In this document: positions 5,520-20,673 of the stretch, one piece after another
Layout: every line of letters begins with the position of its first letter
How positions within the stretch are numbered: position 1 is the stretch's first letter
DNA from: Treponema primitia
GTDB taxonomy: Bacteria; Spirochaetota; Spirochaetia; Treponematales; Breznakiellaceae
Assembly (NCBI RefSeq): GCF_046533075.1
Contig: NZ_JAJQRB010000001.1
Span: forward strand, 1-62,166
Direction: 5' to 3'
DNA length: 62,166 nt
Notes under the pieces: generated by a model
The model's database searches: none
Seen by the model: the letters and a program-made list of their open reading frames with translations, nothing else
What the model was told of the DNA's origin: nothing
Made by a program: the position numbers and the translations under genes

Positions 5520-5520
5520 T

Positions 5521-6831
5521 TTATTTTTCTCCGAAGGGAGGGAATTTCTGCTCAATCTTATCCCGGTCGATCCGGAACCCCTCAAGGTTGATTAAAAACC
5601 GGACCACACTGGCCCGATGGATATGCTTGTCGACGGGCTGGCCATCGGTGATGTAGACCGCTTCTTTTCCATCCGAAAATAGGGCGCTGATCACATTTCC
5701 CACCCGGACGGTTTCGTCCAGCTTGGTAATCACCACCGACTGGTAATTGAAGGGGGCAAATTGCCGGAGTATCTCCCGCATGTCGCTGTATTTGGTGGTG
5801 GCGGCCAAGGCTAGGTGTACCTCCGCCGAGGTCCCGCAGACATCCAGGAACTGCTTCATTTCCGCGAGTTTTACCGTATCCCGGGGGCTCTTGCCGATGG
5901 TATCAACCAGTATCAGGTCGACGTCATTCTGATAAAAGGCGATGGTCTTCCGGAGCTCATCGTTGGTATTTACATAGGATACGGGAATCTCCATGATCTG
6001 ACCGTACTTTTCAAGCTGCTCCTTGGCGGCGATGCGGTATCCGTCGATGGTGATCATCACTACCCGGAGGGGCGCCCCTCCCCAGCCGTCCACCCCATAG
6101 GCGGCGGCCAGTTTGGCGATGGTGGTGGTCTTTCCAACCCCGGTGGGGCCCACCAGTACCATGATCCGGGGTCCCCGGCGCGGGAGGGATGGCCTGCTAT
6201 TGAAACTTTCGGTATGTATCCTGACGGTTTCCCCTATCCATTCAACTACCCTATCCTGGACCGCATCATAGTCTTCCAGCGCATCCAGGGAAAATTCCTT
6301 CCGTACCCGGTCTAACATGGCCTTGGTATAGGCGGGGGAAAAATCATTCTGGTAGAAAACTTCCTCCAACCTGCCCAGGGTTGGGTGTTCCTCCTGGGGT
6401 CCCCTAAAAGGGTGGGCGTCGATCTTTTCCGTAAGGGTCTTAATCTCATTGAGCAATTTCTGCATGGTAGGATCGGGTTGTTTTGTAGAGGCCGCCGCAG
6501 TGGCGAGAAGCTTTTTCTTCTCCTCCTCAAAATCCAGAGGTTGGTTGGGTACATCAATCTGGCTAGTCTGACTAGTCACATTCGGTTGCGCCGCCATCTG
6601 AGAAGATTGCCGGGCTGAGCTTATGCCGTAAGCGCCGGCGGCATAGCGGAGATCCGAGGAAATATAGCCCGTAACTTCTACCCCGTCCCGGGAAAAGAGG
6701 CCGCCAAAGATCCCCCCTATACGGACGGTCCGGTAGTTCATCACCTTAGCCCTTTCCCCGTATTTCAAGCGTATTTTTTGTAAACAGTCGGCGTAGGTTG
6801 AGCCCTGTTCTATAAATTGTTCCACAGACAC
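5521..6831 (-). CDS. flhF: Flagellar biosynthesis GTPase FlhF (SRP-type)
   Basis: 436 aa with G1 motif MVLVGPTGVGKTTTIAKLAA, DTIG, and an SRP54-type GTPase domain. Confidence 0.9.
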   Translation of the reverse strand: MSVEQFIEQGSTYADCLQKIRLKYGERAKVMNYRTVRIGGIFGGLFSRDGVEVTGYISSDLRYAAGAYGISSARQSSQMAAQPNVTSQTSQIDVPNQPLDFEEEKKKLLATAAASTKQPDPTMQKLLNEIKTLTEKIDAHPFRGPQEEHPTLGRLEEVFYQNDFSPAYTKAMLDRVRKEFSLDALEDYDAVQDRVVEWIGETVRIHTESFNSRPSLPRRGPRIMVLVGPTGVGKTTTIAKLAAAYGVDGWGGAPLRVVMITIDGYRIAAKEQLEKYGQIMEIPVSYVNTNDELRKTIAFYQNDVDLILVDTIGKSPRDTVKLAEMKQFLDVCGTSAEVHLALAATTKYSDMREILRQFAPFNYQSVVITKLDETVRVGNVISALFSDGKEAVYITDGQPVDKHIHRASVVRFLINLEGFRIDRDKIEQKFPPFGEK

Positions 6832-6845
6832 TTATGCTTTCCTCC

Positions 6846-8960
6846 TTAAACCTTCACCTTTTCTTCACTTTCCACGCTGATTTCTCCAACCGCTTCCACG
6901 GTAACATCGGCTACCAACTCGGGTACTGAAAGCACCACCAGATCCGGCAGTTCCCGTTCCGTGGAGGACTTAACCAGATACCGGGCCGCCTCGGAACAGA
7001 GGACGATGGGGTACCAACCCTGGTCCTGTACCGCAGCCACCGTCCGGGAAAGGGCCTTTATCCAACTAATCCTGGTGGAGGGGTCCATGGCGGACATGAT
7101 ACCCGCGGCGGTTTCCACGGCGCTGTCCAGGATCTTCTGTTCCAGGCTCTGGCTTATGGTGAGTACCCGAAGCACCCGGTCATCGGTGGCGTACTGCAGG
7201 CATATCTGCCGGCTTAAGGCCTGCCGGGCCTTTTCGTTGAGGAACTGCATATTTTTGGCTGCCTTAGCTGCCTGGCCGTAATCCGCCAGGGCTTCCAGAA
7301 TAGCCACCATATTGCGGATAGAGACCTGCTCCCGGAGCAATGCCTGAAGCACCTTTTGAATTTCCCCAAGGCTGAGTGCCTTCTGGGCTTCCTCCACCAC
7401 TGCGGGGTAGCTTTTCTTAAGGGCGTCCAGAATCTCCTGGGTATCCTGACGACCCAGGATCTCCGCGGCATGGCGCTTGATAATATCCGTTAAATGGGTG
7501 GCGATAATCGAGGGAGGATCAACCACGGTATAACCCGCCCGTTCCGCCTCATCCCGTTTATCCTCGCTTACCCAGAGGGCAGGAAGACCGAAGGTGGGGT
7601 CCCGGGTTTTTTCCCCGGGCAGCTCATCCTTCACCCCCCCGGGATTGATACAGAGGTAGTAACCCATGCGTATCTTGCCCCGGCCCACGTCTACACCCTG
7701 GATCTTAAAGCAGTACTCCGAAGGTTCCAGCCGTATATTGTCGATGATCCGTATCCGGGGAATAACCAGCCCCAGGTCCAGCCCGGATTCCCGGCGAATC
7801 CGGTGGACCCGTTCCAGGAGCTCCGCCCCCTTCTCCCGGTCCACCAGGGGGATGAGTCCGTAACCAAGCTCCAGGGACAGGGGGTCCAGGGGCACTATGG
7901 GGGACATATCTTCGCTTTCGGGTTTGGCCTTCTTGGCATCCGCAGTTTTTGCCGCCGCAGTATCCCGCTTGGTCTTCCGCCGACCCAGGCGTACCGCTAA
8001 TACCACCAGGAGGGCGGCCATGGGAATGAGCACGTACCAGGGAAAGCCCGGCAGCAGGGCAAAGCCCCCAAGGACACCGGCGCCTATCCAGTAGATACGG
8101 GCGTCCCGGGAGAACTGTTCCGAAACATCCTCCCCAAAGGTTCCGTTGGAAACCGACCGGGTAACGATGATACCCGTGGCGGTGGAAATGAGCAGGGCAG
8201 GAAACTGGGATAACAGGCCGTCCCCGATGGAGAAGGATATATAGGTACCGATGGCCACCGTGATGGGTTCACCGTGGATCAGGGTTCCGATGACGATGCC
8301 CCCAATGACATTCACCACCGTGATGAGTATGCCCACCTTAACGTTCCCGGAGATAAACTTACTGGAACCGTCCATGGCGCCGTAGAAGTCAACCTCCCGC
8401 TGGAGATCGTTTTTCCGGGCAATGGCCTCTTCCTCGGTGATGGCCTGGGAGTTGTACTCCGCTTCAATGGCCATCTGTTTCCCCGGCAAAGCATCCAGGG
8501 CAAACCGGGCGGCCACTTCCGCGATACGGGTGGCGCCCTTGGTGATAACCACCGCCTGCACCGCGATGATGATGATAAAGATAACAAAGCCCACCACCAG
8601 ACCTTCGGTACCGCCGGAGCCGACCACGAAGGACGAGAAGGCCCGGACCATGCGGCCGTCGAAAGCGGTTCCCCGGGTCAGGATGAGCCGGGTGGAGGAG
8701 ACGTTCAGGGCCAGGCTGAACACGGTTGACACCAACAGTATGGTTGGGAAGATACTGAAGTCCGTAGCCTTCCGGGTATAGAGGACGATAAGGAGGATCA
8801 GCAGGGCCAGAACCAGGTTCATGGCCATCAGGGCGTCCAGGAGTACCGTGGGCAGGGGGATGATCAGCATCATCACCACCGCCACCACCGCCACCGCCAT
8901 GACGAGTTCCGTACTGTTCCCAAAAAAGGTTTTCCGCGCCGTGCCGCTTTGGTCAGACAT
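6846..8960 (-). CDS. flhA: Flagellar export apparatus protein FlhA
   Basis: 704 aa with multi-TM N-terminal domain and a FHIPEP-type cytoplasmic domain (…KRHAAEILGRQDTQEILD…). Confidence 0.92.
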   Translation of the reverse strand: MSDQSGTARKTFFGNSTELVMAVAVVAVVMMLIIPLPTVLLDALMAMNLVLALLILLIVLYTRKATDFSIFPTILLVSTVFSLALNVSSTRLILTRGTAFDGRMVRAFSSFVVGSGGTEGLVVGFVIFIIIIAVQAVVITKGATRIAEVAARFALDALPGKQMAIEAEYNSQAITEEEAIARKNDLQREVDFYGAMDGSSKFISGNVKVGILITVVNVIGGIVIGTLIHGEPITVAIGTYISFSIGDGLLSQFPALLISTATGIIVTRSVSNGTFGEDVSEQFSRDARIYWIGAGVLGGFALLPGFPWYVLIPMAALLVVLAVRLGRRKTKRDTAAAKTADAKKAKPESEDMSPIVPLDPLSLELGYGLIPLVDREKGAELLERVHRIRRESGLDLGLVIPRIRIIDNIRLEPSEYCFKIQGVDVGRGKIRMGYYLCINPGGVKDELPGEKTRDPTFGLPALWVSEDKRDEAERAGYTVVDPPSIIATHLTDIIKRHAAEILGRQDTQEILDALKKSYPAVVEEAQKALSLGEIQKVLQALLREQVSIRNMVAILEALADYGQAAKAAKNMQFLNEKARQALSRQICLQYATDDRVLRVLTISQSLEQKILDSAVETAAGIMSAMDPSTRISWIKALSRTVAAVQDQGWYPIVLCSEAARYLVKSSTERELPDLVVLSVPELVADVTVEAVGEISVESEEKVKV

Positions 8961-8987
8961 TAAAATCTACTCCTTACAGAAGAAGAA

Positions 8988-9120
8988 TATAACCACAGAG
9001 CACACAGAGCTTGCACAGAGGACACAGAGGAAAAGACAGAAAGAAGAATTTTAAAAACCTCTTCCCCTTTCCCCCTCCGTGTCCTCTGTGTTCTTCCCTC
9101 TGCGCCCTCTGTGGTTACTC
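8988..9120. repeat. Palindromic intergenic repeat element R1 (arms AACCACAGAG...CACAGAGGACACAGAGG / CCTCCGTGTCCTCTGTG...CTCTGTGGTTA; purine run - AATTTTAAAAA - pyrimidine run at apex)
   Basis: Imperfect ~45-bp inverted repeat in the flhB-flhA intergenic gap. Same family as the copies at 10325-10437 and 20780-20830. Confidence 0.7.
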
Positions 9121-9138
9121 TTCTCTCCATCGTTTCTC

Positions 9139-10539
9139 CTATGCCCCAAGGCCGGCGTTGCGGCGCCGGTCTTCGTTCAGCCGGTATACGTGGGCTAATA
9201 CATCAGCCACGGCCCGGTAATAGGTTTCCGGTATGACTTCCCCCACCTCGGTCTCAGCATAGAGCGCACGGGCCAGGGGTTTGTTTTCCACCACCGGTAC
9301 ATCGTTGTCCTCGGCTATGCGGCGAATCCGCAGGGCCAGTTCGTCCTCGCCCTTGGCGCTTACCATGGGGCCGTCCATCCCCGGCTTGTATTCCAGGGCC
9401 ACCGCAAAGTGGGTCGGGTTGGCGATAACCACATCCGCCTGGGGAACCGTAATAGCAATATTCCGGGTCATCAGTTCACGCATTCTTTGCCGCAGCCGGG
9501 ACTTGATCATCGGGTCCCCTTCGTACATCTTCCGTTCTTCCTTCACTTCCTGCTTGGACATCTTTAAGGATTCCCGGTACTGCCAGCGCTGGAAAAGCAT
9601 ATCCGGTATGGAAAGGAGGAGCAGCAGTAACGCTGAGATGATAAGCATCCTGATGGCCAGGGACGCTACGGTGGTCACCCCTAACCAGAGCCTGGCGGTT
9701 TGGAGATTCGCCAGTTGTTTGATCTCCGAACGGATTAGGAAGAAGGCCACGGCGCCGATGATAGCCATCTTAACGATGGACTTAGCGATATTGAAAAGCC
9801 CTTCCATAGAGAAGAGGGTTTTCTGAAAGTAACGGCCCAGCCGGGGCACTACCTTGGAAAAGTCCGGGGTCAGGGGCTTGGTGGTAAAGAGGAAACCGGT
9901 CTGCACCACATTGGAAAAAATCCCCGCCGCCATGGCCACCAGCACGATGGGCAGGGCCAGCCGGGTCAGGTAGTTAAAGAAGGCCACCGCCACCACCCGA
10001 TCCTTTATGGGGTCCAGCTCGGAGGCCCGGAGAAAGTAGAAACGCAGCATTTCTACGCAAGTCCTGAGCATAGAGGGGGCCAGGAAAAAAATAGTAAGCG
10101 CCGGCAGGAGCAGGACCAATGCGCCGATAAGCTCCTGGCTCTTGGCAACCCGCCCCTCCTCCCGGGCCTTCTGTATCTTATACTCGGTGGGTTCTTCAGT
10201 ACGCCCCTCATCCTCCGCGGCGAACCACTGCAGGTCTATTTTGGAAGGAATATCGTTGTTTGCGGACTTTTTTCGTTCGCCATTTCCTTGAAAAAAATCA
10301 AAAATATAATCAGAGAAATCAAAAGAATAACCACAGAGGACACGGAGGGAAGAACACAGAGGAAGAGGAGGAAGAGAAGAAGAAGAAAAATTTATATCTT
10401 CCCTCTGTGTCCTCTGTGAAAGCGAACCGAAGGTTCGATCTCTGTGTTCTCTGCGGTTATTCTTCATTTCTCTGCGGTTATTCTTCATTTCTCTGTGGTT
10501 ATTCTTCATTCCTCTGCGGTTATTCTTCATTCCTATCAT
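9139..10539 (-). CDS. flhB: Flagellar export apparatus protein FlhB (annotated start overlaps fliR stop, ATGA; N-terminal ~95 aa encoded by repeat DNA)
   Basis: Conserved IDLQWFAAEDEGRTEEPTEYKIQKAREEGRVAKS... and NPTH autocleavage motif (VIANPTHFAVAL). The 5' 240 nt consist of a dispersed palindromic repeat plus four 21-bp tandem units. Confidence 0.85.
   Translation of the reverse strand: MIGMKNNRRGMKNNHREMKNNRREMKNNRREHRDRTFGSLSQRTQREDINFSSSSLPPLPLCSSLRVLCGYSFDFSDYIFDFFQGNGERKKSANNDIPSKIDLQWFAAEDEGRTEEPTEYKIQKAREEGRVAKSQELIGALVLLLPALTIFFLAPSMLRTCVEMLRFYFLRASELDPIKDRVVAVAFFNYLTRLALPIVLVAMAAGIFSNVVQTGFLFTTKPLTPDFSKVVPRLGRYFQKTLFSMEGLFNIAKSIVKMAIIGAVAFFLIRSEIKQLANLQTARLWLGVTTVASLAIRMLIISALLLLLLSIPDMLFQRWQYRESLKMSKQEVKEERKMYEGDPMIKSRLRQRMRELMTRNIAITVPQADVVIANPTHFAVALEYKPGMDGPMVSAKGEDELALRIRRIAEDNDVPVVENKPLARALYAETEVGEVIPETYYRAVADVLAHVYRLNEDRRRNAGLGA
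10325..10437. repeat. Palindromic repeat element R2 (AACCACAGAGGACACGGAGGGAAGAACACAGAGG ... GAAGAAAAATTTATATCTTCCCTCTGTGTCCTCTGTG) plus CGAACCGAAGGTTCG mini-palindrome
   Basis: Same family as R1 and R3. Lies inside the 5' end of the flhB ORF, in frame and without stop codons. Confidence 0.7.
10449..10532. repeat. 4 x 21-bp tandem repeat (CTCTGCGGTTATTCTTCATTT), translated on the minus strand as (MKNNRRE)x4 at the annotated FlhB N-terminus
   Basis: Four near-identical 21-bp units read directly. The unit resembles the terminus of the R1 repeat (CTCTGTGGTTACTCTTC). Confidence 0.8.
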
Positions 10540-11354
10540 GACCCGCCCCCGATCTGTGTCCCAATCTGCATGTACAGGGACTCGATGTTTTGGAAACCCA
10601 TGTCCACTACCCGGGCGAAGGCTTCGGTCATGAAGGGCATGGTGGCCATGATGAGGACGAAGGCTACGGTGATTGATATGGGGAAACCTTCGGTAAGGAT
10701 ATTGATCTGCGGGGCCGCCTTGGAGATGAGCCCCGTGGACAGTGAGGTAAGGAAGAGGGTCCCCAGTATGGGCATACTGATCACGATGGCGTCCATAAAC
10801 ACCCCGGTAAGCCCGTTCAGGAGGGTTTCTATCACCGCTTCATGGCCCATAACCAGAGAATAGGCGCTGATCGACTGGATGGAACGCCAGAACCCGCCCA
10901 GGAACAGTTCGGAAAAGCCGCCTATGGAAAGGAATACCAGCATGGCCACCAGGTTCAGGTATTGACCCATTAGGGGGTTTTCTATTTGAGCAAGGGGGTC
11001 GAAGGTTTCAGAGGCGCCGAAGCCCATCTGGAGGGAGAAGAACTGACCCGCCGTGGAGAAGGCGGAGAAGATCAGGGTAAGGTAGAACCCGATGATGATC
11101 CCCACGATGGCCTCCCCAATGAGGAGAAACACAAAGTACAGACCGAAGGGCGCAAGATTCCAGCCCGCAGCAAGGGCGGTGGGAAAGGCGGTAAAGGCGG
11201 CAAACCCCGCCAGGGCAATCTTGGCAATCTGGGGTATGCCGTCCGAAGACAGTAACGGTGCAGTTTCGATCATCGCCAGAGCCCGGACGGCAATCAGGAG
11301 AAACGCCGGTGCACCGGCTAAAATTTCGTTAAGGAACTGCGCCTCAATCACCAA
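10536..11354 (-). CDS. fliR: Flagellar export apparatus protein FliR
   Basis: 272-aa polytopic membrane protein. Position and sequence are typical of FliR. Confidence 0.85.
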   Translation of the reverse strand: MVIEAQFLNEILAGAPAFLLIAVRALAMIETAPLLSSDGIPQIAKIALAGFAAFTAFPTALAAGWNLAPFGLYFVFLLIGEAIVGIIIGFYLTLIFSAFSTAGQFFSLQMGFGASETFDPLAQIENPLMGQYLNLVAMLVFLSIGGFSELFLGGFWRSIQSISAYSLVMGHEAVIETLLNGLTGVFMDAIVISMPILGTLFLTSLSTGLISKAAPQINILTEGFPISITVAFVLIMATMPFMTEAFARVVDMGFQNIESLYMQIGTQIGGGS

Positions 11355-11385
11355 CCAACCCCTTGTCTAAAAGTTTATGCACGCG

Positions 11386-11655
11386 TTAACGCGCCATAGC
11401 AGGAATCATCCTGAATAACTGCACCGTATAATCCCCCAGGGAAGTAAACATCCAGCCCCCCAAAAGGCCCAGTACCAGAAGTATGGTCAGCACCTTTGGT
11501 ACAAAGGTCAGGGTCTGCTCCTGGATAGAGGTGGTGGCCTGCAGTATAGCTACTATCAGGCCCACGGTAAGGGCGGAAAACAAAAGCGGCGCCGCCAAAA
11601 GCAGGGTCTCAAATATGCCCCCCCGGAGAAGGGCCGTAATGTCGCCGATACTCAT
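11386..11655 (-). CDS. fliQ: Flagellar export apparatus protein FliQ
   Basis: 89 aa with two TM helices (…LLAAPLLFSALTVGLIVAILQATTSIQEQTLTFVPK…). Confidence 0.85.
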   Translation of the reverse strand: MSIGDITALLRGGIFETLLLAAPLLFSALTVGLIVAILQATTSIQEQTLTFVPKVLTILLVLGLLGGWMFTSLGDYTVQLFRMIPAMAR

Positions 11656-11664
11656 CTATCACCC

Positions 11665-12492
11665 CTATCCGAAAGAACGGACTATCTGGTCCGTCAAAAG
11701 CCCCCAGCCGTCCACCAGAATAAAGAGGATCAGCTTAAAGGGCATGGAAATCATTACCGGGGGCAGCATGATCATACCCATGGACATGAGCGCGCTGGCC
11801 ACCACCATATCGATCACGATAAATGGAATAAACAACAATATGCCTATCTTAAAGGCTATGGTTAATTCATTGAGAATGAATGCGGGAATCAGCACATAGG
11901 TGGGGACATCCGCCAGGGTATTCGGGCGGTCCAGCCCCCGCATGGACATGAAGAGCCGGATATTGCCGGGGTTGCTCTGCATCTGGCGGTACATGAAGAT
12001 ACGCAGCGGAGCCTCGGCGCCCCGGTACGCTTCCTGCACCGATATGTTCCCCTGTTGGAGGGGCTGGAAACTATTCTGATATATCTCTTCAAAGGTGGGC
12101 CACATGATAAATGCGGTGAGGAAAAGGGAAATCCCCAGAATCACCTGGTTTGGGGGTACCTGCTGCAGGGAAAGGGCCCGTTTAATAAAGTCCAGGACTA
12201 TGGATATCCGCAGAAAACTTGTGGTAAGTATGATGATACTCGGCGCCAGGGAGAGGGCGGTAAGGAGCAGCAGCAGTTGGAGAGAAAAGGCTACTTCCTG
12301 CCCCGATTCGGGGTTCCGTACGGTAAGATCGATAAAGGGGATCACCGGGTCTGCGGGCGCTGCAGGGACGGCCACGGTTCCCGGTGTGGAAAGGTTCGGA
12401 AAGGGAAAGGGCGTGGTCTGGGCCGCTGCCGGGAGGGGGACAAAAACAGCCAGCAGAAACAGGGTTCCCGCCAGAACAATCGGGCGGCTCAT
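11665..12492 (-). CDS. fliP: Flagellar export apparatus protein FliP
   Basis: 275 aa with signal peptide and conserved FliP core (…PSIIILTTSFLRISIVLDFIKRALSLQQVPPNQVILGISLFLTAFIM…). Confidence 0.9.
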   Translation of the reverse strand: MSRPIVLAGTLFLLAVFVPLPAAAQTTPFPFPNLSTPGTVAVPAAPADPVIPFIDLTVRNPESGQEVAFSLQLLLLLTALSLAPSIIILTTSFLRISIVLDFIKRALSLQQVPPNQVILGISLFLTAFIMWPTFEEIYQNSFQPLQQGNISVQEAYRGAEAPLRIFMYRQMQSNPGNIRLFMSMRGLDRPNTLADVPTYVLIPAFILNELTIAFKIGILLFIPFIVIDMVVASALMSMGMIMLPPVMISMPFKLILFILVDGWGLLTDQIVRSFG

Positions 12493-13139
12493 AGGTCCTT
12501 CAGCCTTTCCCGCCGTTTACGCAGGTCGTCCGCCCGGAACCGTGTATTTGCGCCGCCACCGCCCAGACGGCGCAGGAGGGCCGAAAAGTTCAGGAACTTC
12601 GGGGCGCCGTCACTTCCTTTACGGGAATCGTCCAGAAGCATGGCGTCCACCATCTCCTGATCCGTTATTTCAGAGATAAGGGATACGCCATTGTCTCCGG
12701 CGCCCACCAGCCATGCCTTGTTCCCCACGGAAACTACCGCCACCGAACTGCCCGCCCCCATGGGGGTCCTGGCCAATATCTTGAGATAGGGATTTTTCTG
12801 CTCCGGTGAACGGGAGAGGCGCTTGAAAAAGAATACCAAACCATAGATAGCAGCCGCGGCCAGGGCGAGAACTAAAACCATCCGGAGAACAAAAAAAACA
12901 GTAGGGGTTCCCGGAGTGGGAAGAGCTTCTCCCGGGGGCGCATCCCCAAGAATAATCAGGTTTTCTGCAATGGGCTCGCCGGGAAGCGGCGCTGTTTCAA
13001 CGGCCAGGACAGAGGATTCCCCCAGGGTGTCCGGCGTTTGAGCGGATACTTTGTTGAGATTAAAAGTAAAGAGGCCAATGCTTATAAAAAGCACGGCTAT
13101 AGACATCGGATAAAATCGATACAGTTTTTCCCCTCCCAA
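12489..13139 (-). CDS. fliO: Flagellar biosynthesis protein FliO/FliZ
   Basis: 216 aa with a single TM helix. Located immediately upstream of fliP and overlaps the fliP start. Confidence 0.6.
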   Translation of the reverse strand: MGGEKLYRFYPMSIAVLFISIGLFTFNLNKVSAQTPDTLGESSVLAVETAPLPGEPIAENLIILGDAPPGEALPTPGTPTVFFVLRMVLVLALAAAAIYGLVFFFKRLSRSPEQKNPYLKILARTPMGAGSSVAVVSVGNKAWLVGAGDNGVSLISEITDQEMVDAMLLDDSRKGSDGAPKFLNFSALLRRLGGGGANTRFRADDLRKRRERLKDL

Positions 13140-13199
13140 GTAGAAACTGATCCTTAGTAACTATTTTAATCTATATTAGTAGTGTTGCGCTACCCCTAT

Positions 13200-14252
13200 T
13201 TAGCTTAATTCGGTCATTCTTTCCATGGGAGAGACAATTTCTGTGACACGGACACCAAAATTTTCGTCAATAACCACCACTTCACCCTTTGCAATAAGCT
13301 TATGATTCACCAGAATGTCTACCGGCTCACCGGCAAGCTTGTCCAATTCAATGATGGTACCCTCACCCATACCCAAAATTTCCTTGATCAGCTTTCTGGT
13401 ACGGCCCAATTCTACGGTCATCTCCATGTATACATCCATGATGAGACCGATATTGCCCGCTTCCTGAGCCGTGGGCTGGGGCATTAGATTTGGAAACTGT
13501 ACCGACTGAACGTTAGAGGGCGACCCCATAATACCTCCCATACCACCTCCTCCCATCATACCGCCCATAGGAGCTGCCGGAGCCGGCTTAGCCGCCGCCG
13601 GAGCGGGACCGGCGGTCAGGGCCTTGGTAATATCCGCCGCCACCTGCGGCCCGTAGACTTCCCAAATCCGGTGATCCTTTCCATCGCCCAGATCGAGCTG
13701 GTAATCCGCAACCTGGAACTCTCCTGCGGGGAGCGCCGCGGCAGCTTTGGGAACATTGGCGGCCTCGGGGGCAACATTGGCGATAGACTTATTGCCGGTC
13801 TTTCCGGTCAGGGTGGTGATCTGGGTACCCACAATGGTACCCACCATTTCCCCAATCACCGACATGGCCATCTCATCCAATTCGATGTTTTCTTCCTTGT
13901 TCATCAGAGCGGCAATAGCTCTAGCCGTATCCTCGGGAAAAAGAAATATATGTTCACCGGGGAACCCGGCGCTAAAATCCGCTTTAACCGCAGTAACCAT
14001 ATCCGGAAGCTTTTCTATCAGGGCGTCCCGGTCAGAACTGCTCAGCTCGGGCCCCTTAAGGCTAACCGATGCGCCGGTCATGGTGGAAAGGTTGGAGGAC
14101 TGGGCATCCACGGTGCCGGAGAGATAACCCTGCAGGGCCTTGGACTCGGCGCCGCCGTTTCCTCCGCCGCCATTACCGCCGCTAAAGCTCGAAGAATCTA
14201 CCCCGGCTAACAGTGCATCTATTTCCGCCTGCGAAAGAGCGCTATCGCTCAT
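13200..14252 (-). CDS. fliY: Flagellar motor switch protein FliY/FliN (CheC-like N-domain, Gly/Met linker, C-terminal FliN/SpoA domain)
   Basis: N-terminal LSQAEIDALLAG CheY-binding motif. C-terminal FliN domain (TVELGRTRKLIKEILGMGEGTIIELDKLAGEPVDILVNHKLIAKGEVVVIDENFGVRV). Confidence 0.8.
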   Translation of the reverse strand: MSDSALSQAEIDALLAGVDSSSFSGGNGGGGNGGAESKALQGYLSGTVDAQSSNLSTMTGASVSLKGPELSSSDRDALIEKLPDMVTAVKADFSAGFPGEHIFLFPEDTARAIAALMNKEENIELDEMAMSVIGEMVGTIVGTQITTLTGKTGNKSIANVAPEAANVPKAAAALPAGEFQVADYQLDLGDGKDHRIWEVYGPQVAADITKALTAGPAPAAAKPAPAAPMGGMMGGGGMGGIMGSPSNVQSVQFPNLMPQPTAQEAGNIGLIMDVYMEMTVELGRTRKLIKEILGMGEGTIIELDKLAGEPVDILVNHKLIAKGEVVVIDENFGVRVTEIVSPMERMTELS

Positions 14253-14276
14253 ACTTTGCCCCCCCCTTCCTGCAAA

Positions 14277-14837
14277 TCATAACTCAACCACATCAAGCTG
14301 TTTAAATACAATATTCTTTGCCTTTGAAGAATTCAGGACCTTGGTATTCAGGGCCTCAATGATCTCCTGTTTCAGCCTGGCTTCGTTTTCGGTTGCCAGA
14401 TCCCGGGCATACTTGGAACTAAAAAAATTCCGCACAAAATCCTGCAACTCGTAAAGCCGGGTGGTCAGTTCGGTGGCAGCGTTCTTATCATTCATATCAT
14501 AACCGATGGCCAAATCAACCACCACCGAATGGGAGGTAGGATCCTTGGTTCTGCACCGTACCGTGCCTATGGAATTAAAATAGAGATACTCCGGCCGTTT
14601 CCCGTTATAGGGGGAAGAGGAATCGGCCACAACGGTTTGGGATGGCCCACCTTTATTCATAAAATTAAAGGTAATCACCGTTACGGTAATAATAAAAATC
14701 AGTGCGCCCAAACCTATGGCTACAAATTTAAGCAGATTCGGCAATAAGGCTCCCAAACCGCCCGGTTTTTTAGAACCGCCGCCGCCTGAGTCCTGAGCTT
14801 CGCCTCCCTCATCCAGTATATCGTCGCCATCGCCCAT
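14277..14837 (-). CDS. fliL: Flagellar basal-body-associated protein FliL
   Basis: 186 aa with a single TM helix (KFVAIGLGALIFIITVTVITF) followed by a FliL-type periplasmic domain. Confidence 0.8.
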   Translation of the reverse strand: MGDGDDILDEGGEAQDSGGGGSKKPGGLGALLPNLLKFVAIGLGALIFIITVTVITFNFMNKGGPSQTVVADSSSPYNGKRPEYLYFNSIGTVRCRTKDPTSHSVVVDLAIGYDMNDKNAATELTTRLYELQDFVRNFFSSKYARDLATENEARLKQEIIEALNTKVLNSSKAKNIVFKQLDVVEL

Positions 14838-14941
14838 GACCTAACCCTCCGACTCTCTATTTTATAGTATACAAAAATACCATTTTATGCAAACCCTTTT
14901 CTTACAAAAGGCCTGGCCATTTTACAAAAGACCTGACCATT

Positions 14942-15673
14942 CTATAAATGGCCATCATCCAGGATGATAACATCCACCCGGCGGTTATATGCCCTGCCTT
15001 CTGCGGTATCATCCGAGGCTACCGGGACCGTGGCGGCAAATCCCGCCACCTGAAAATGCCGTTCCTCTACTCCAATATCGGTAAGATAGTGAAGAACACT
15101 AATAGATCGGGCGGTAGAAAGTTCCCAATTCGATTCCCATGGACCTTCGGGGTCCACCGGAGTATCATCGGTATGACCTTCAATGCGGAATTTTCGTCCC
15201 CGTACCTCATCCGAACTCAGCAGGGTTCCTAAGCGCAGCAGAATATCCCGGGTCTGTTCCACGTTGATCCTGGCGCTGGCGGGGTTAAAAAAGGCGTCCG
15301 AAGCAAGGCTTATAACCAGGCCCCGCTCGTCACGGGTGACCTTTACTTTGTTGGATTTAACTTCCGGGTTAAAAAGGCTTATGGCCTTTTTCAAAGCCGT
15401 GCCCAGGGACTCGCCCTTTTCCATTGCAGGCAGGGAGGCTATGGTATTGCCCAGATCCGCGCTTTTCCCGGCCCCCAGGGTGTTTCCCCCGGAATTGGCC
15501 CCGATACCCTGGTTGTTAAATGCGGAAATCAGGGCTTCCACGGTGGAAGGGGTTACTTCATCGGGGTTGAAGAGGGCGACAAAGAAACAAAGCATCAGGG
15601 TAACCATGTCTGAATAGGTTACAATCCACTCACCGCCTGCACCGCCCGCTTCGGGCTTTTTCTTTTTCGCCAC
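14942..15673 (-). CDS. motB: Flagellar motor stator protein MotB (OmpA-like peptidoglycan-binding)
   Basis: MotB plug/TM region (WIVTYSDMVTLMLCFFVALF) and a C-terminal OmpA-like domain. Confidence 0.88.
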   Translation of the reverse strand: MAKKKKPEAGGAGGEWIVTYSDMVTLMLCFFVALFNPDEVTPSTVEALISAFNNQGIGANSGGNTLGAGKSADLGNTIASLPAMEKGESLGTALKKAISLFNPEVKSNKVKVTRDERGLVISLASDAFFNPASARINVEQTRDILLRLGTLLSSDEVRGRKFRIEGHTDDTPVDPEGPWESNWELSTARSISVLHYLTDIGVEERHFQVAGFAATVPVASDDTAEGRAYNRRVDVIILDDGHL

Positions 15674-15684
15674 GTCATACTTCC

Positions 15685-16467
15685 TTAATCTTTTAGCACT
15701 TCCGCTTCTACTGTTTTACGATCCAGGGGATTCAAATAGGTCAGGAGCTTCATCCCCAATATACGGGGGTTATCGCCGGCCTGGATGGAGAGGACTCCCT
15801 CGATGGCCATTTCCTTAACCTTGGCTTCCGTGGCGTCCATGGTCTGTAATTTACCCGACCAGGGGATCATCAGAAGGTTAGCAACCATGGAACCGTACAG
15901 GGTGGTGATAAGCGCAACGGCCATGTTCGGTCCCAGGGCGGATTTATCTTCCAGGTTTTTCAACATACCAATGAGCCCGATAACCGTGCCCAACATACCA
16001 AGTCCGGGAGCCAGGGTACCCCACATATTGACAACCTTGATTTTTGCAACGTGCCGTTCCTGCATCTGGCCCAGCTCGGTTTCCATAAGGTTCCGCACAA
16101 TCTCTGCGTCGGTACCGTCCACCACAAGCCGCAGCCCCTTTTTGATAAATTCATCGTCCAGATCGTCCAGCATTTCTTCCAGCGCCAGGAGTCCTTCCCG
16201 GCGGGCCTTTTCCGACATATTCATCAATTGCCGGATAAGCGCCGTTTCGTTAAAGTTAGCGGTCTTAAAGGTCAAACTGATAGTATTGAAGATACCAATA
16301 GTGTTGGGAATGCTGCCGAAGGTGAAGAGACCGAAGTAGGAACCCAGCACGACGATCAAGATTGAAGGAAGATCGTAGAAGGTCATCAGGCCTGATCCCC
16401 CGGTGATAATTCCCAGGCCAACCATGCCGAAACAACCGGCAACACCAATTAAGGTTGATATATTCAT
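15685..16467 (-). CDS. motA: Flagellar motor stator protein MotA
   Basis: 260 aa with four TM helices. A conserved MotA/TolQ/ExbB proton channel. Confidence 0.88.
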   Translation of the reverse strand: MNISTLIGVAGCFGMVGLGIITGGSGLMTFYDLPSILIVVLGSYFGLFTFGSIPNTIGIFNTISLTFKTANFNETALIRQLMNMSEKARREGLLALEEMLDDLDDEFIKKGLRLVVDGTDAEIVRNLMETELGQMQERHVAKIKVVNMWGTLAPGLGMLGTVIGLIGMLKNLEDKSALGPNMAVALITTLYGSMVANLLMIPWSGKLQTMDATEAKVKEMAIEGVLSIQAGDNPRILGMKLLTYLNPLDRKTVEAEVLKD

Positions 16468-16479
16468 ACCGCTTTACCT

Positions 16480-16677
16480 CTATTCCTCATTCTTAAAGCC
16501 GCCGATTCTCCGGCGATATTCCACGATCCGGTCGATAACTTCGGTCACCGTTTCTTTCACCACAATAATTTTACCGGACAGCATCTGGAGGGTGGTATCC
16601 GGCCGAACTTCGAGGGACTCAATTTGATGCGGATTTAAATAGTATTCCATTCCGTTCAGCCGGGTTACCTTAATCAC
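16480..16677 (-). CDS. flbD: Flagellar protein FlbD
   Basis: 65 aa, MIKVTRLNGMEYYLNPHQIE... A typical FlbD located between flgE and motA. Confidence 0.85.
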   Translation of the reverse strand: MIKVTRLNGMEYYLNPHQIESLEVRPDTTLQMLSGKIIVVKETVTEVIDRIVEYRRRIGGFKNEE

Positions 16678-16682
16678 TTAGT

Positions 16683-18107
16683 TTACCTTTTGAGGGTCAA
16701 AATTTCCTGCAAGAGCTGGTCCGCAGTCTGGATGGTCCGGGAGTTGGCCTGGAACCCGCGCTGGGTAACGATCATATCCACGAACTGTTCCGAAAGATCC
16801 ACGTTGGACATTTCCAGGGTACCGGCGATGATCTTGCCCTTCCCCGCTATGCCCGAGGGCCCAATGTTGGCGTAACCCGAGTTGTTACTCACCAGGAAGA
16901 CATTGTCTCCGCCCTTTTCAAGACCGCCCTGGTTAGAAAAGCTGGCCATTGCCACCTGCCCCAGGGTGCGGTTCGTTCCGTTGGAATACACCCCGGTGAT
17001 AACCCCGCTCTGGTCAATCTTAAAGTTTTCCAGGTAGCCCATGGTATAACCATCCTGAATGATAGCTTTGGTAGAACTGGACTCCGCATACTGGGTAATG
17101 CTATTTACCAGCCCCCCCGCGGTGCCCAGGTTCAGGGCGAATTCCTGACGGATCATTCCACCGTCAATTTCCGGGGCCGCGCTCAGCACATCAAAGGCCA
17201 CGTTCATCACCACCGGGCCCTCTCCGTTGGTCACGGCGCCGTTGATGTCCTCAATGCTCTGGAGGGTACCATTGTTGTTGAAGATCACCGTAAAGGTGTT
17301 TGTCGCCGCCGGGACCTGTCCCACCATACCTACTTCAGTATTGGTGGGCTGGGCGCTTTCCGGGTCCACCGTTACGGTGGCGGTCCAGCGGTTGTTGAGG
17401 TTCGCCAGAGGCTCGCCATCGGCGTTGAAGCCCCAGTTACGCAGGAATTCTACCCGGAGTATGTGCTCCAGACCAAAGGTGTCGTAGATTTTCATTTCCG
17501 TACCCCAGGTACCGTGGGAGATTTCCGCCGGGGAGGGAGCGTTGGGAACGATGGGGGTCCGCTTGTCTAAGTTACAGGCAAAGTCGACCGATGTGGTGGC
17601 GCGGGCAGCATCTTTGCTCCCCACGGGGATAACGAGGTTCTCGGTATCCCGGGAAACATCCAGCACCTGCTCACCCCCAATGGTCCGGGCCTGCCAGCCC
17701 TGAACCCGCATACCGTTGGCGGGGTTTACCAGCAAACCTTCCTGGTCTAGGCCGAACGCGCCCGCCCGGGTGTAGAAGGATTTTTCGCCCTGCTTAAGGA
17801 CGAAGAAGCCCGTACCCTGGATCGCCAAATCGGTACCCACGCCGGTAGTCTGGAGGGAGCCCTGAGTATGGATGGTGTCGATGGAAGCCACCGACATCCC
17901 GAGACCAACTTCCTTGGGGTTCACGCCGCCAAGGTCTTCCGTGGGCTTTGCCGCCCCCTGAAGCTGCTGGTATATCATATCCTGAAAATTAACTCTGTTC
18001 CGTTTAAATCCGGTGGTGTTGACGTTGGCAATGTTATTACCTACCACGTCCATCCTGGTCTGGTGATTTTGTAATCCCGACACACCGGAAAATAATGATC
18101 GCATCAT
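16683..18107 (-). CDS. flgE: Flagellar hook protein FlgE
   Basis: N-terminal [35 protein letters not shown] and the C-terminal flagellar rod/hook conserved domain. Confidence 0.92.
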
Positions 18108-18119
18108 AGTAGTTTTCTC

Positions 18120-18560
18120 CTATTCTTCAAATACTCTGGTAACCTGATCCCACTGATAGTAGGCGCCGTTTACCAATACCTCGGGTACGGCTCCCCGGGC
18201 AACCGCCCGTACCGTCCCCTGGACGACCCGGTCTCCCTCGACAATTTCCACCGAACGCCCCAGGGCGGAAGTGGCTTCACCGCCGGTAAGAAGACTCGCC
18301 AGCCGGGAAAAATCGCTGGCCATGCCGGTCATCTGTTCCAGGGTGGAAAACTGGGCCATCTGCCCGATGAATTCCTTGTCCTCCATAGGGGCGGTGGGAT
18401 CTTGATGGCTCAACTGGGTGATGAGAATTTTTAAGAAATCATCCTTACCCAGGCTCTGGTTGGGCATCCTGCCCTTCTGTATCGATTTGTTGAAGGTGTC
18501 CACTTCCATGCTAAGGACTGCCTTTTCCTGAGAGCTAAGAACCGCTTCAAGCGCTGCCAT
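18120..18560 (-). CDS. flgD: Flagellar hook assembly/capping protein FlgD
   Basis: FlgD N-terminal motif KDDFLKILITQLSHQDPTAPM. Confidence 0.85.
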   Translation of the reverse strand: MAALEAVLSSQEKAVLSMEVDTFNKSIQKGRMPNQSLGKDDFLKILITQLSHQDPTAPMEDKEFIGQMAQFSTLEQMTGMASDFSRLASLLTGGEATSALGRSVEIVEGDRVVQGTVRAVARGAVPEVLVNGAYYQWDQVTRVFEE

Positions 18561-18591
18561 TTTTTCTATCTCCTAACACTAACACGAGTGT

Positions 18592-20022
18592 TTACACCAA
18601 CACATTGACCCGGGACATGCCCGGGCCTTCAAAACCATTGAATCCGGCCTCCATGCTAAGGGGGTCCATGGTTTCCGCCATGGCGTCATAACTGGAAGAG
18701 ACAACATGGGAAGAGAAAAACGGGGTTGCCGCCTCTCTGTTCCATTGCCCCTGACCGCTATTTTGGCCGCCGTCTCCCGCAAGAGCCATATCAAGACTAG
18801 CCCCGGCAAAGCCGGAATCCCGAAAAGCCTGCTCCAGGGAGTGGATCTCCTTCTCAAAAGCCCGGAGGGCCTCATTGCTTTCAACAATGATATGCCCTGT
18901 GATCTTGTTTTCGGCCATTTCAAGGCGTATCTTTACCATTCCCAGGGACTCGGGTTTGAGGGAAAGTTTGATGGTCCCTTCCCCGCCGTCCTTGACCATG
19001 ATGGACGCCTGCCGGACTATGTCGCCGTTGAGGTTCTGGTGGAGTTCCCTGGCCAGAATATCCTCGAAGGCCCGGCCCGGGCTTTTCTCCTGGCCCAGTT
19101 CCATGTACTCCCGGCTTCTGCCGTTGTTTTTAAGCTCCACCGCGATATCAACAACCCGTTCCGCTCCGGCATTTGACCCGGGCTTTATTTCCTGCCCGGG
19201 GTTAAGCACGGCGCCGTTTCCCTCGGTCCTGAGATCCTGGACCTCCAGGGTAAACCGTTCCCGGTTTTTTTTGTTGTTCTTGGTTTCCGCTACGGTGGCT
19301 GGACCTTTTTCTTTTTTCTCAACCCCGCCGGGATTGCGCCCCTTCCCCTGGACCAGCTGCGAAAGTTCGGCGTTGGCCGCAGTTTCCGCTGCATTTTCAG
19401 GAAGTTCCCGGGCAATATTCCGGAGATCCTTCAGATCCCGGAACCGGTCATTCGCCCCGGCAAACTCAAGAGCGCTGTCCTGATCCGCCAAATCCGCCCC
19501 TTCCCCGGAATGTATTCCCGTAAGAAGCTGATCGTTTAATAAGCCCTGGCTTAGTTCTATCGCCGCCGGGAGGGAATCCTTGTCACCCTCCCCTTCGCCG
19601 CTTTCCTTGGCCAGTTTAGTTTTTTTAGCCGCCGCCTCTTTTAGCAGCTCCGCCGGAGAAGAGGCTTCACCCTCCCTCTGCATAGCAAATAAAAGACGCC
19701 GGTCCCTGTTTTGGATTTTTTCATTACCGGCGGAAAGGACATTTTTATCCTCAACAGAAAATTTCGCGCCCTTCCCGGCAGCATCCTTGGCTGCCTTGGC
19801 GATTTTTTCCGTTGAGACAAGTCTTTCCGTCTCAATTTTGCCGGCCTCTTCGCCGCCGGCTTTGGTTTTCCGTGTAAGTCCCGCAAGCAGTTTGGCAAAT
19901 ACACCCAGGGCGCCTTTTTTTGCCCCCTTAGAGTGCTTAACCTCTCCGGAATTCAGACTTTCTACGGAATGTGATTGGGGGGATACTGCTGCCAACACCG
20001 CCCGACCTCCTGTAGTTTTCAC
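18592..20022 (-). CDS. fliK: Flagellar hook-length control protein FliK-like
   Basis: 476-aa low-complexity, charged protein with a C-terminal FliK-like domain (…GTIKLSLKPESLGMVKIRLEMAENKITGHIIVESNEALRAFEKEI…). Located upstream of flgD. Confidence 0.7.
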   Translation of the reverse strand: MKTTGGRAVLAAVSPQSHSVESLNSGEVKHSKGAKKGALGVFAKLLAGLTRKTKAGGEEAGKIETERLVSTEKIAKAAKDAAGKGAKFSVEDKNVLSAGNEKIQNRDRRLLFAMQREGEASSPAELLKEAAAKKTKLAKESGEGEGDKDSLPAAIELSQGLLNDQLLTGIHSGEGADLADQDSALEFAGANDRFRDLKDLRNIARELPENAAETAANAELSQLVQGKGRNPGGVEKKEKGPATVAETKNNKKNRERFTLEVQDLRTEGNGAVLNPGQEIKPGSNAGAERVVDIAVELKNNGRSREYMELGQEKSPGRAFEDILARELHQNLNGDIVRQASIMVKDGGEGTIKLSLKPESLGMVKIRLEMAENKITGHIIVESNEALRAFEKEIHSLEQAFRDSGFAGASLDMALAGDGGQNSGQGQWNREAATPFFSSHVVSSSYDAMAETMDPLSMEAGFNGFEGPGMSRVNVLV

Positions 20023-20055
20023 ATCAAGGTGTGATTACTCCGGAAGCCGGTCTGT

Positions 20056-20673
20056 CTAGTCTCTGAGGGAGGGTCTCCCCGCCATCTTACGCTGCAGCTC
20101 CGCCGCCCGTTCTGGGGGCATGAGTGACAGCCAGTAGGATACGATAGAAGCGCTTCCTTCAGCCTGGGCAATCTCTTCGGTCTTCCGGAGTACGTCGATG
20201 GCATCCTGATCGTTCATGTTGGTTATTATGCCCACCGCTCGCTCCGGAGGCATACCATTCAAATAACGCGCATTCTGCTCAACGTTCCTGGATCTAATGT
20301 CGGCGTCTTCCACCATGGCATTGAAGGAATTCTCCCGTTCATCCAAAGCTTTTTGCCGTTCCTCCAGGTCCTGGGCCATTTGTTCTATTTGATCCTGCCG
20401 GGAAACCAGTTCCTCTTCCTTCTGTTCTATCTCCATATTACGCAATTCCAGGGCTTCCAGCCGTATGGCCAGCCGTTCCGCATCCAGGGAAAGGAACTCC
20501 TCCTCCCCGGTTTCCGTCTGGGAGCGGGGCTGCAGGCCGATAAGGCGGTACACCGGGGCCAAAATCGTCTTGGCGTCGATAACATTGAGGTAATCAAACC
20601 ATACCAAGCCGCCGCCTGCTAAAATGGCGATGAGCAGCAATAAAAGAAAAACCCTGCCTAAAACTCTCCCCAC
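20056..20673 (-). CDS. FlbB-like flagellar protein (TM anchor, coiled coil, MgtE_N-like C-terminus); GTG start
   Basis: 205 aa. First gene of the operon. Start is GTG at 20673, with an AGAGGAGTGAGG RBS-like tract upstream. Confidence 0.5.
   Translation of the reverse strand: MGRVLGRVFLLLLLIAILAGGGLVWFDYLNVIDAKTILAPVYRLIGLQPRSQTETGEEEFLSLDAERLAIRLEALELRNMEIEQKEEELVSRQDQIEQMAQDLEERQKALDERENSFNAMVEDADIRSRNVEQNARYLNGMPPERAVGIITNMNDQDAIDVLRKTEEIAQAEGSASIVSYWLSLMPPERAAELQRKMAGRPSLRD

Follow-up and report, generated by a model that had tools for sequence, protein, structure and literature searches.

Gene content and order around the fliL-fliY junction

The window (the whole stretch of DNA that was analysed, 62,166 nt of a Treponema primitia contig) carries a large motility gene cluster, the relevant features of which are listed in Table 1. 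The genes are arranged in the order fliK-flgD-flgE-flbD-motA-motB-fliL-fliY-fliO-fliP-fliQ-fliR-flhB-flhA-flhF-flhG, followed by a gene encoding a 231-aa protein, a FliA-like sigma factor gene and FapA; a flbB-like gene is also present in the cluster. The preliminary description of this DNA had reported an otherwise canonical operon in which a 24-nt gap separates fliL from fliY and fliM is missing. Both points are borne out, as the TGA stop codon of fliL (14279-14277, minus strand) and the start codon of fliY flank a spacer of exactly this length and, with the exception of fliM, the spirochete fla/motility operon set is complete and in order. The spacer contains a purine-rich, Shine-Dalgarno-like GGAAGGGGGGGG for fliY, and no fliM-like sequence was seen in it. 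With regard to the remainder of the 62-kb window, a tblastn search of the six frames with two Treponema FliM sequences did not find fliM, the best match (E = 0.46) being noise. The FliL protein is 100% identical to MFP3040196.1 of T. primitia.

Table 1 Features of the motility gene cluster around the fliL-fliY junction
Feature	Position in the window	Strand	Description and supporting matches
Entire motility gene cluster	1133..20673	-	Contains the gap; collinear with ZAS-1 (L169) and ZAS-2 (L001)
fliO/fliZ	12489..13139	-	Directly downstream of fliY; PF04347, 52.1 bits; TIGR03500, 56.5 bits
fliY-type switch gene	13200..14252	-	350 aa, ATG start at 14252; FliY/FliN profile matches
fliL-fliY spacer	14253..14276	-	24 nt, in the place of fliM in relatives; sequence 'TTTGCAGGAAGGGGGGGGCAAAGT'
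fliL	14277..14837	-	186 aa, last gene before the junction; PF03748, 30.1 bits; NF005175 (FliL), 147 bits, full-length
motB	14942..15673	-	Upstream of fliL; PF13677 and PF00691

The switch protein encoded next to fliL is FliY

The 350-aa product of the gene following the spacer is a FliY/FliN-like protein and not FliM. The architecture that had been claimed for it holds, with an N-terminal CheY-P-binding peptide (LSQAEIDALL, residues 6-15, as read from the sequence), a degenerate, putatively CheC/CheX-like middle region whose profile match is weak, a Gly/Met-rich linker between this region and the SpoA domain, and a FliN/SpoA C-terminus. The C-terminal domain (residues 271-340) scores 84.9 bits with PF01052, and the protein reaches 100.3 bits with the fliN model TIGR02480, above the cutoff of 84.05. 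The middle region (residues 92-151) scores 26.1 bits with PF13690 (CheX), just below the 27-bit cutoff, and the CheC and CheX NCBIfam models score approximately 27 bits. The comparison of FliM and FliY profiles, which had been proposed for this protein, favours FliY: the best whole-protein model is NF005995 (FliY) with 190.9 bits, under its equivalog cutoff of 218, whereas the FliM model TIGR01397 gives 26.9 bits (cutoff 219.6) at profile positions 250-318 only, which correspond to the shared C-terminal SpoA domain. Neither PF02154, the FliM middle domain, nor the first 250 positions of TIGR01397 matched the protein. It is 100% identical to MFP3040195.1 and 83% identical to the FliY of T. primitia ZAS-2.

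The active site of CheC phosphatases is characterised by the motif [DS]-x3-E-x2-N-x22-P. The full motif is absent from the 350-aa protein (regular expression search), in which the nearest sequence is S131-VIG-E135-MV-G138 with a proline at +24, and it is found in 0 of 159 related spirochete FliY sequences. As the canonical motif is absent, a CheY-P phosphatase activity of this FliY is doubtful.

The fliM-less junction is shared with ZAS-1 and uncultured relatives

The operon contig of T. primitia ZAS-1 (AEEA01000066.1, L169) exhibits fliL, a 24-nt spacer and fliY (353 aa), and the nucleotide identity between this operon and that of the window is approximately 93%. The arrangement is identical in ZAS-1 (GCA_000297095.1) but the strain is different, since the FliL, FliY and MotA sequences are not identical and ZAS-1 is devoid of the short repeat insertions that the window has around flhB. 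The same junction is observed in the JGI metagenome contigs L165, L167 and L168 and in a Logan SRA assembly (L166), which also encode the closest relatives of the window FliY (84-89% identical). Homologous spacers of 21-24 nt are present in ZAS-1, L165, L167 and L168, and the fliM-less primitia subclade has a bootstrap support of 94% in a neighbour-joining tree. The metagenome search with FliY yielded relatives at 56-69% identity among the matches listed, the closer ones having come from a separate retrieval.

The junction is thus borne by six independent assemblies that are 7-16% apart in nucleotide sequence and, because all of them share it while differing to this extent, the deletion predates their divergence. 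An error of sequencing or assembly, or a disabling deletion that arose only very recently in a strain kept in the laboratory, is therefore an extremely improbable cause of the gap. Such an origin could have been suspected from the draft status of the contig and from the G8 homopolymer in the spacer, a kind of run at which certain sequencing chemistries tend to make errors, but it does not account for the recurrence of the junction, and the genes flanking the gap are intact.

Judged by these sequence comparisons, the window strain is a ZAS-1-like T. primitia, a spirochete of the termite gut, and the fliM-less junction is a lineage trait. The preliminary description had considered the arrangement an anomaly unless fliM were encoded elsewhere and close relatives shared the same gene order; ZAS-1 exhibits both, so that the junction is better described as a trait of the lineage, while the departure from the canonical operon stands. 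This trait is derived and young; the sister strain ZAS-2 and 78 of the 80 species-level Treponema-like loci retain fliL-fliM-fliY, with fliM directly preceding fliY.

ZAS-1 encodes an intact fliM outside the operon

The ZAS-1 assembly contains a stand-alone, monocistronic fliM (P0122) on contig AEEA01000050.1, with coaE and a SPOR gene downstream of it. Its product scores 382.8 bits with TIGR01397 (cutoff 219.6) over profile positions 1-318 and exhibits PF02154 and PF01052 (precomputed matches), an LSQDEIDQLL N-terminus and the GGTG motif. The dN/dS ratio of the orphan fliM is 0.01-0.05, and the gene is under purifying selection. Upstream of the orphan, at positions 9954-9982 of L003, is a sigma70-like promoter sequence, TTGATA-17-TATACT, whose -10 element is extended by TG; it is conserved in L005. 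The operon contig L165 stems from metagenome 3300042605, as does L171 (the same as L005), whose orphan fliM is 99% identical to that of ZAS-1.

The P0122 protein is also found as MFP3043832.1, in the same numeric accession block as the MFP3040195.1 and MFP3040196.1 of the window. From this block, which may span two genomes of one batch, and from the bracketing by relatives, we infer that the genome of the window strain carries the orphan fliM as well. Two explanations had been offered initially, namely that fliM is encoded elsewhere or that the FliY-like protein substitutes for it. The former is supported by ZAS-1, which has the junction together with an intact fliM, and by the MFP3043832.1 accession, whereas the latter is unsupported and unneeded. 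A genome without fliM, in which the C-ring would be made of FliG and FliY alone, is very improbable. FliY does possess a CheY-binding peptide, a SpoA domain and, between them, a putative CheC-fold region that is a distant relative of the FliM middle domain, and the 62-kb window is devoid of fliM; nevertheless, ZAS-1 combines the same junction with a strongly conserved fliM, an identical FliM stands under a T. primitia accession in the block of the window's accessions, FliY exhibits none of the FliM-specific matches mentioned above, and the N-termini of FliY are alike in fliM-less and canonical operons.

ZAS-2 retains both copies of fliM

In T. primitia ZAS-2, which is reportedly the strain of the first in situ motor structure, the motility operon (CP001843.1, 1315576-1328661) comprises genes orthologous to those of the window, with the order kept from fliK to flhA and a nucleotide identity of 77-85%. 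In ZAS-2 (L001), as in Treponema sp. TIM-1 (L002), a 343-aa fliM lies between fliL and fliY and overlaps fliY by ATGA. The operon fliM of ZAS-2 has a GTG start and is preceded by a 153-nt hairpin-rich leader, whereas the window has 24 nt at this place. The blastn alignment of the two operons stops at the fliL stop (L001 4819, window 14277) and restarts at L001 5983 (window 14270); the 1163 nt of ZAS-2 that are missing in the window correspond to the intergenic leader and nearly all of fliM. The last 18 nt of the spacer align with the 3' end of the ZAS-2 fliM by blastn, with approximately 12 of 23 positions matching by eye, a stretch too short to prove homology.

We also considered whether fliM was deleted by recombination of its 5' end with that of fliY, the two being similar where they code for LSQxEIDxLL. 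This was rejected because the FliY N-termini in fliM-less operons are of the pure FliY type (MSDGALSQAEIDALL).

A further fliM of ZAS-2 (P0133) is situated at the syntenic locus with coaE, SPOR, SBP_bac_5 and TP_0584_C. It shares 95% identity with P0122, which in turn is 89% identical to the operon copy of ZAS-2. In a tree of 113 FliM sequences (neighbour-joining only, as for FliY), the orphans group together with a bootstrap support of 99.5%, and the ZAS-2 operon copy is their sister (97%). The orphan and the operon fliM of ZAS-2 have a 5' leader of approximately 65 nt in common, which is 95% identical, and hairpin sequences related to this leader are also present in the operon leader of TIM-1. 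The dS value is 0.60 between the two ZAS-2 copies and 0.88 between orthologous orphans, which suggests gene conversion or a shared codon bias and blurs the timing of the duplication.

As the orphans are sister to the operon copy of ZAS-2 and ZAS-2 retains both genes, it is very probable that fliM left the operon by duplication, after which the operon copy was lost, and that the motor is not FliM-less. A different origin, in which horizontal transfer from another treponeme or a cut-and-paste transposition brought in the orphan and this replaced the native operon copy with no duplication within the lineage, is unlikely. The upstream context of the orphan varies (a hybrid histidine kinase in ZAS-1, a Mur ligase-like gene in ZAS-2 and an ABC-F ATPase in MAG Ncb351_bin77), and other orphan fliM exist, such as L060, which is just 80-83% identical to all others, as might be expected from such a gain. 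However, the position of the orphans in the FliM tree, the 5' leader of the operon copy carried by the ZAS-2 orphan, the coexistence of both copies in ZAS-2 as the expected intermediate and the downstream coaE-SPOR-SBP_bac_5-TP_0584_C synteny common to ZAS-1 and ZAS-2 all argue against it, and there are no mobile-element genes beside the orphan.

According to the duplication and loss history, the ancestor of the T. primitia group would have had the canonical fliL-fliM-fliY order, in which the stop codon of fliM and the start codon of fliY overlap in ATGA. A copy of the gene and its 5' leader would then have been placed elsewhere, upstream of coaE, giving a two-copy state that is still seen in ZAS-2. 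A deletion in the ZAS-1 lineage, to which uncultured termite-gut relatives belong along with ZAS-1 and the window strain, would have removed the operon copy and left the 21-24-nt spacer. As this spacer retains a Shine-Dalgarno sequence, fliY would be translated independently, directly after fliL. FliM would be produced from the monocistronic orphan gene, presumably by use of its own sigma70-like promoter, and would join FliG and FliY in a C-ring of the usual kind, the stoichiometry of FliM presumably being maintained without translational coupling.

fliM has also left the operon in distant termite-gut treponemes

A second, distant termite-gut clade exhibits operons that are also devoid of fliM, and the fliL-fliY spacers of this clade hold recognisable fliM fragments. 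The spacer of L148 contains the relic 'KKMVVQVIKKTAEFNVKELAVDGEVL', corresponding to the FliM C-terminus (z = 14), and those of L154, L145, L107 and L108 contain 'NLNxLKKRLLTVDVN', which matches FliM residues 242-261 (z = 4.5-10). By parsimony, fliM was lost from the operon independently at least four times. The sequence 'TAAAG-N16-GTCGAT' in the spacers of this clade was considered as a sigma28 promoter, but the alignment identified it as a relic of fliM codons ~245-260, and a promoter role is unsupported.

It is conceivable, if rather doubtful, that the exit of fliM from the core operon is recurrent and possibly selected in termite-gut treponemes, each loss being preceded by a stand-alone fliM with its own promoter, and that strains with two paralogues could build two C-rings; the scars left by the losses have decayed to different degrees. 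If true, the CheY-responsive switch subunit would be uncoupled, in its dosage or timing, from the rest of the motor, and ZAS-2-like strains might have two kinds of C-ring, for instance condition-specific or pole-specific ones. We know of no functional specialisation of the two FliM paralogues. Unless these paralogues or the separate promoter are functionally specialised, the effect on the understanding of the motor mechanism is small, and the arrangement is a genuine evolutionary variant, though only of modest interest. It shows a route, duplication followed by loss, by which a highly conserved operon can be deprived of a C-ring gene that is essential and normally subject to translational coupling; the evidence consists of ZAS-2 as a living intermediate and of relics under decay in other lineages. 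Annotators who find no fliM in the operon on a Treponema contig or MAG should infer neither a loss of chemotactic switching nor incompleteness, and ZAS-2 should be flagged as a two-FliM strain.

Comparison with known systems

In the flgB operon of Borrelia, the order is fliL-fliM-fliN. The fla operon of T. pallidum and T. denticola, reportedly described by Hardham et al. and by Stamm & Bergen, has the order tap1/fliK-flgD-flgE-orf4-motA-motB-fliL-fliM-fliY-orf-fliP. Compared with the canonical Treponema fla and Borrelia flgB operons, the window keeps the other genes and their order and has no fliM in the operon; literature searches found no published description of such a fliM-less arrangement. 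Its FliN-type partner is FliY, as in other Treponema. The domain order of this FliY, comprising a CheY-binding peptide, a putative CheC/CheX-like region and a FliN/SpoA domain, corresponds to that of FliY in Bacillus subtilis and Thermotoga maritima, where a CheC-like phosphatase is fused to FliN; unlike these, the window protein is below the NF005995 equivalog cutoff and is devoid of the canonical CheC motif. The two FliM of ZAS-2 resemble FliG1 and FliG2 of Borrelia burgdorferi in that a C-ring gene is present both in the operon and as an unlinked copy. In contrast to FliG1 and FliG2, the FliM paralogues are 89% identical, and the ZAS-1 lineage retains only the unlinked copy.

The fliL-fliY junction

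The minus strand of the window carries a long motility cluster running from a flbB-like gene to FapA (Table). On this strand, the TGA stop codon of fliL is followed by a 24-nt spacer, TTTGCAGGAAGGGGGGGGCAAAGT, and then by the ATG of the switch gene, with a Shine-Dalgarno-like sequence of fliY's own inside the spacer. This reading matches exactly the coordinates and the 24-nt gap of the preliminary description. As two Treponema FliM queries gave no tblastn match better than E = 0.46 across the whole 62 kb, fliM is absent from the junction, as that description had claimed, and from the 62 kb.

Table. Motility genes and repeats of the window
Feature	Position	Strand	Remark
flbB-like	20056-20673	-	
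fliK	18592-20022	-	
flgD	18120-18560	-	
flgE	16683-18107	-	
flbD	16480-16677	-	
motA	15685-16467	-	
motB	14942-15673	-	
fliL	14277-14837	-	
switch gene (fliY)	13200-14252	-	350 aa; degenerate CheC-type motif at residues 131-162
fliO	12489-13139	-	
fliP, fliQ, fliR, flhB		-	in this order, between fliO and flhA
flhA	6846-8960	-	
flhF, flhG, 231-aa ORF		-	in this order, after flhA
FliA-like sigma factor	3106-3918	-	
FapA	1133-3085	-	
20-nt tandem repeat	14902-14953		motB-fliL intergenic region; 2.6 copies of TTACAAAAGGCCTGACCATT (plus strand)
short repeat insertions	8961-9138; 10240-10551		both sides of flhB; not in ZAS-1
inverted arms	9074-9122; 10323-10371		flanking flhB; 86% complementary
21-nt tandem repeat	10447-10531		4 copies; related copy at operon head, 20782-20831
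66-nt tandem repeat	52586-52915		~5 copies, 68-100% identity; within 545-aa ORF 52252-53889
tRNA-3'-end-like sequence, then terminator hairpin	30648-30701; 30833-30886		two copies, 83% identical, 185 nt apart; probably a tandem tRNA gene pair

The FliY and FliL of the window match GenBank MFP3040195.1 and MFP3040196.1 of Treponema primitia at 100% identity. The FliL of T. primitia ZAS-1 (WP_010260089.1) falls in the same 90% cluster and differs in sequence, the ZAS-1 operon contig AEEA01000066.1 exhibits 92-95% nucleotide identity to the window over ~16 kb, and the FliY of strain ZAS-2 is 83% identical. By these identities, the window strain is neither ZAS-1 nor ZAS-2. The repeats around flhB lengthen its longest ORF to 466 aa (MKNNRRE repeats), compared with 387 aa in ZAS-1 and 380 aa in ZAS-2, and the true start is probably internal.

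Identity of the switch protein

With regard to the 350-aa protein, an LSQAEIDALL N-terminus and a Gly/Met linker are readable in the sequence. Pfam assigns FliMN_C to residues 271-340 (84.9 bits) and a near-threshold CheX to residues 92-151 (26.1 bits, cutoff 27). The best NCBIfam model is FliY NF005995, at 190.9 bits and under its equivalog cutoff of 218, and the fliN domain model is passed (100.3 vs 84.05). The FliM model TIGR01397 gives only 26.9 bits vs 219.6, through the shared C-terminal domain. These profile scores identify the protein as a FliN protein of the FliY type rather than as FliM, in agreement with the initial reading.

The full canonical CheC-type phosphatase motif, [DS]x3Ex2Nx22P, was not found in the FliY of the window, where a glycine replaces the asparagine (S131-x3-E135-x2-G138), nor in any of 159 related spirochete FliY sequences. 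Spirochete FliY proteins of this kind may therefore not be CheY-P phosphatases.

An intact fliM at a separate locus

A search with the ZAS-2 FliM identified a protein, P0122, annotated as FliM of T. primitia. Its gene stands alone on the 203,547-bp ZAS-1 contig AEEA01000050.1 (positions 10001-11032 of the extracted locus, L003). It is followed 18 nt downstream by coaE and then by a SPOR-domain gene; 183 nt upstream, on the same strand, lies a hybrid histidine kinase/response regulator (1010 aa, L003 6785-9817), which is kept neither in ZAS-2 nor in the MAG Ncb351_bin77. P0122 covers the full TIGR01397 model (382.8 bits) and retains LSQDEIDQLL and the GGTG motif. A dN/dS of 0.01-0.05 points to strong purifying selection on the orphan.

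A sigma70-like promoter (TTGATA-17-TATACT, extended -10 TG; L003 9954-9982) is common to the orphans of ZAS-1 and Ncb351_bin77; it was called, like all promoters here, by consensus match only, and the sequences upstream of it are unrelated. The preliminary description had left two possibilities, namely a fliM encoded elsewhere or a FliY that substitutes for it. The first holds for ZAS-1. For the genome of the window, we infer it from accession numbering: MFP3043832.1, a second GenBank accession of the exact P0122 sequence, is numbered 3,637 above the window FliY, which is consistent with an origin in the same assembly. An orphan fliM 99% identical to that of ZAS-1 also occurs in the metagenome (3300042605) that contains the fliM-less operon contig L165, and the MAG Nt197P3bin89 carries an additional orphan from a different lineage. 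As the nearest sequenced strain has an intact, conserved fliM at a separate locus, nothing suggests that FliY has taken over the role of FliM.

Distribution of the fliM-less junction

ZAS-2 and Treponema sp. TIM-1 have a fliM of 343 aa between fliL and fliY, its stop codon overlapping the fliY start (ATGA). Among the matches listed when one genome per species was scanned with FliM, 78 of 80 loci have fliY immediately after fliM, and fliL precedes fliM in nearly all of them; these frequencies, like those of the metagenome FliY scan below, describe samples and not censuses. In contrast, ZAS-1 exhibits fliL (L169, its operon contig, 10001-10561), a 24-nt spacer and a 353-aa fliY. The nearest three metagenomic relatives (L165 and L166, L167, L168), 84-89% identical to the window FliY, likewise have fliL, a 21-22-nt spacer and fliY. 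In the FliY neighbour-joining tree (all trees: 342-345 columns), the fliM-less sequences and the window form one clade (94% bootstrap), and the next branch outside it is ZAS-2, with fliM. The junction, first presented as an anomaly, is thus unusual against the wider group and not within its immediate lineage.

Proposed duplication followed by loss

ZAS-2 carries a second fliM (P0133) at a locus syntenic with the ZAS-1 orphan, coaE-SPOR-SBP_bac_5-TP_0584_C-DUF8086 lying downstream in both. P0122 shares 95% identity with P0133 and 89% with the copy in the ZAS-2 operon. A neighbour-joining tree of 113 FliM sequences groups the orphans of ZAS-1, ZAS-2 and Ncb351_bin77 in one clade (bootstrap 99.5%), whose sister is the ZAS-2 operon copy (97%).

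The ZAS-2 operon fliM has a GTG start and a 153-nt leader (L001, the operon locus, 4820-4972), which contains repeated GGAGTTT...AAACTCC hairpins and, immediately downstream of fliL, a hairpin made of A and T only; related hairpin sequences occur in the TIM-1 operon leader. The last ~65 nt of the ZAS-2 operon leader, a GGAGTTTT...AAAACTCC hairpin with AAAATAAAAAACCGGAGGTTTTTTATTCA after it, are 95% identical between the two ZAS-2 copies (orphan: L004 9930-10000). As the orphan has the leader of the operon fliM, it is a copy derived from the operon together with that leader. When ZAS-2 and the window are compared by blastn, homology ends at the fliL stop codon and returns 18 nt before the fliY ATG, 1,163 nt (the leader and nearly all of fliM) being gone from the window. 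This short match is only suggestive of a retained fliM tail that supplies the fliY ribosome-binding site.

We propose that fliM was duplicated in an ancestor of T. primitia, that ZAS-2 retained both copies and that the ZAS-1 lineage lost the operon copy. FliM would then be made monocistronically from the sigma70-like promoter, fliY would be translated independently, its coupling to fliM gone, and the C-ring would keep the usual FliG/FliM/FliY composition. One point is inconsistent: the orthologous orphans differ by a dS of 0.88, the two ZAS-2 copies by a lower dS of 0.60. Either partial gene conversion or a codon bias common to the copies could account for this; the dS values hint at gene conversion, and the similarity of the two ZAS-2 copies is slightly higher in their 5' two-thirds.

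Decaying fliM in other operons

The metagenome scan with the window FliY yielded at least 80 termite-gut contigs. Among the 80 matches listed, fliM lies upstream of fliY in 54, fliL directly precedes fliY in 18, and the remaining 8 contigs are too short for a call. In the FliY tree, the 18 fliM-less contigs and the T. primitia clade are far apart. When Fitch parsimony was applied to this neighbour-joining tree and to 100 bootstrap trees, 4-7 changes were required (median 5), and the ancestral state was presence of fliM.

The fliL-fliY spacers of these 18 contigs (18-193 nt) contain fliM fragments, tested against mononucleotide shuffles of the spacers. In L148, the spacer encodes the C-terminus of FliM, 'KKMVVQVIKKTAEFNVKELAVDGEVL' (score 69 vs 26 ± 3 for shuffles), and also 'LKEKLVTVDVN'. 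The spacers of L154, L145, L107 and L108 encode 'NLNxLKKRLLTVDVN', which matches FliM residues 242-261 (z = 4.5-10). Nucleotide alignments place the relics at fliM nt ~735-800 and ~1004-1034. The fragments are pseudogene remnants, and operon fliM loss is a repeated process in the termite-gut group, seen at several stages of decay.

Codons ~245-260 of fliM ('LKEKLxTVDVN') persist in many fliM-less spacers (L107, L108, L127, L133, L137, L144, L145, L147, L148, L152, L154, L162, L163). The underlying DNA, TAAAG-N15/16-GTCGAT(A/G)T, resembles the sigma28 promoter TAAA-N15-GCCGATAA. This relic may reflect shared ancestry only, or may be a fliM-internal promoter kept for the expression of fliY and the export genes.

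Other rearrangements were observed in termite-gut MAGs: a ~2.7-kb insertion between fliL and fliM (L027, 3285-6000), 2-3.6-kb insertions between fliY and fliO (L010, L011, L012, L024, L036), and a histidine-kinase-like gene in the place of motB upstream of fliL (L010, L011, L024).

Comparison with known systems

Full-text literature searches found no mention of the fliM-less arrangement. It represents a clear example of a gene relocated through duplication and loss, for which an extant intermediate and scars are both available. Its practical value lies in the interpretation of Treponema MAGs, and the mechanistic surprise is limited. The proteins are ordinary members of FliM and of the FliY/FliN group, correctly annotated by NCBI as FliM and FliN, and, apart from the absence of one gene, fliM, the operon corresponds to the known Treponema fla operon.
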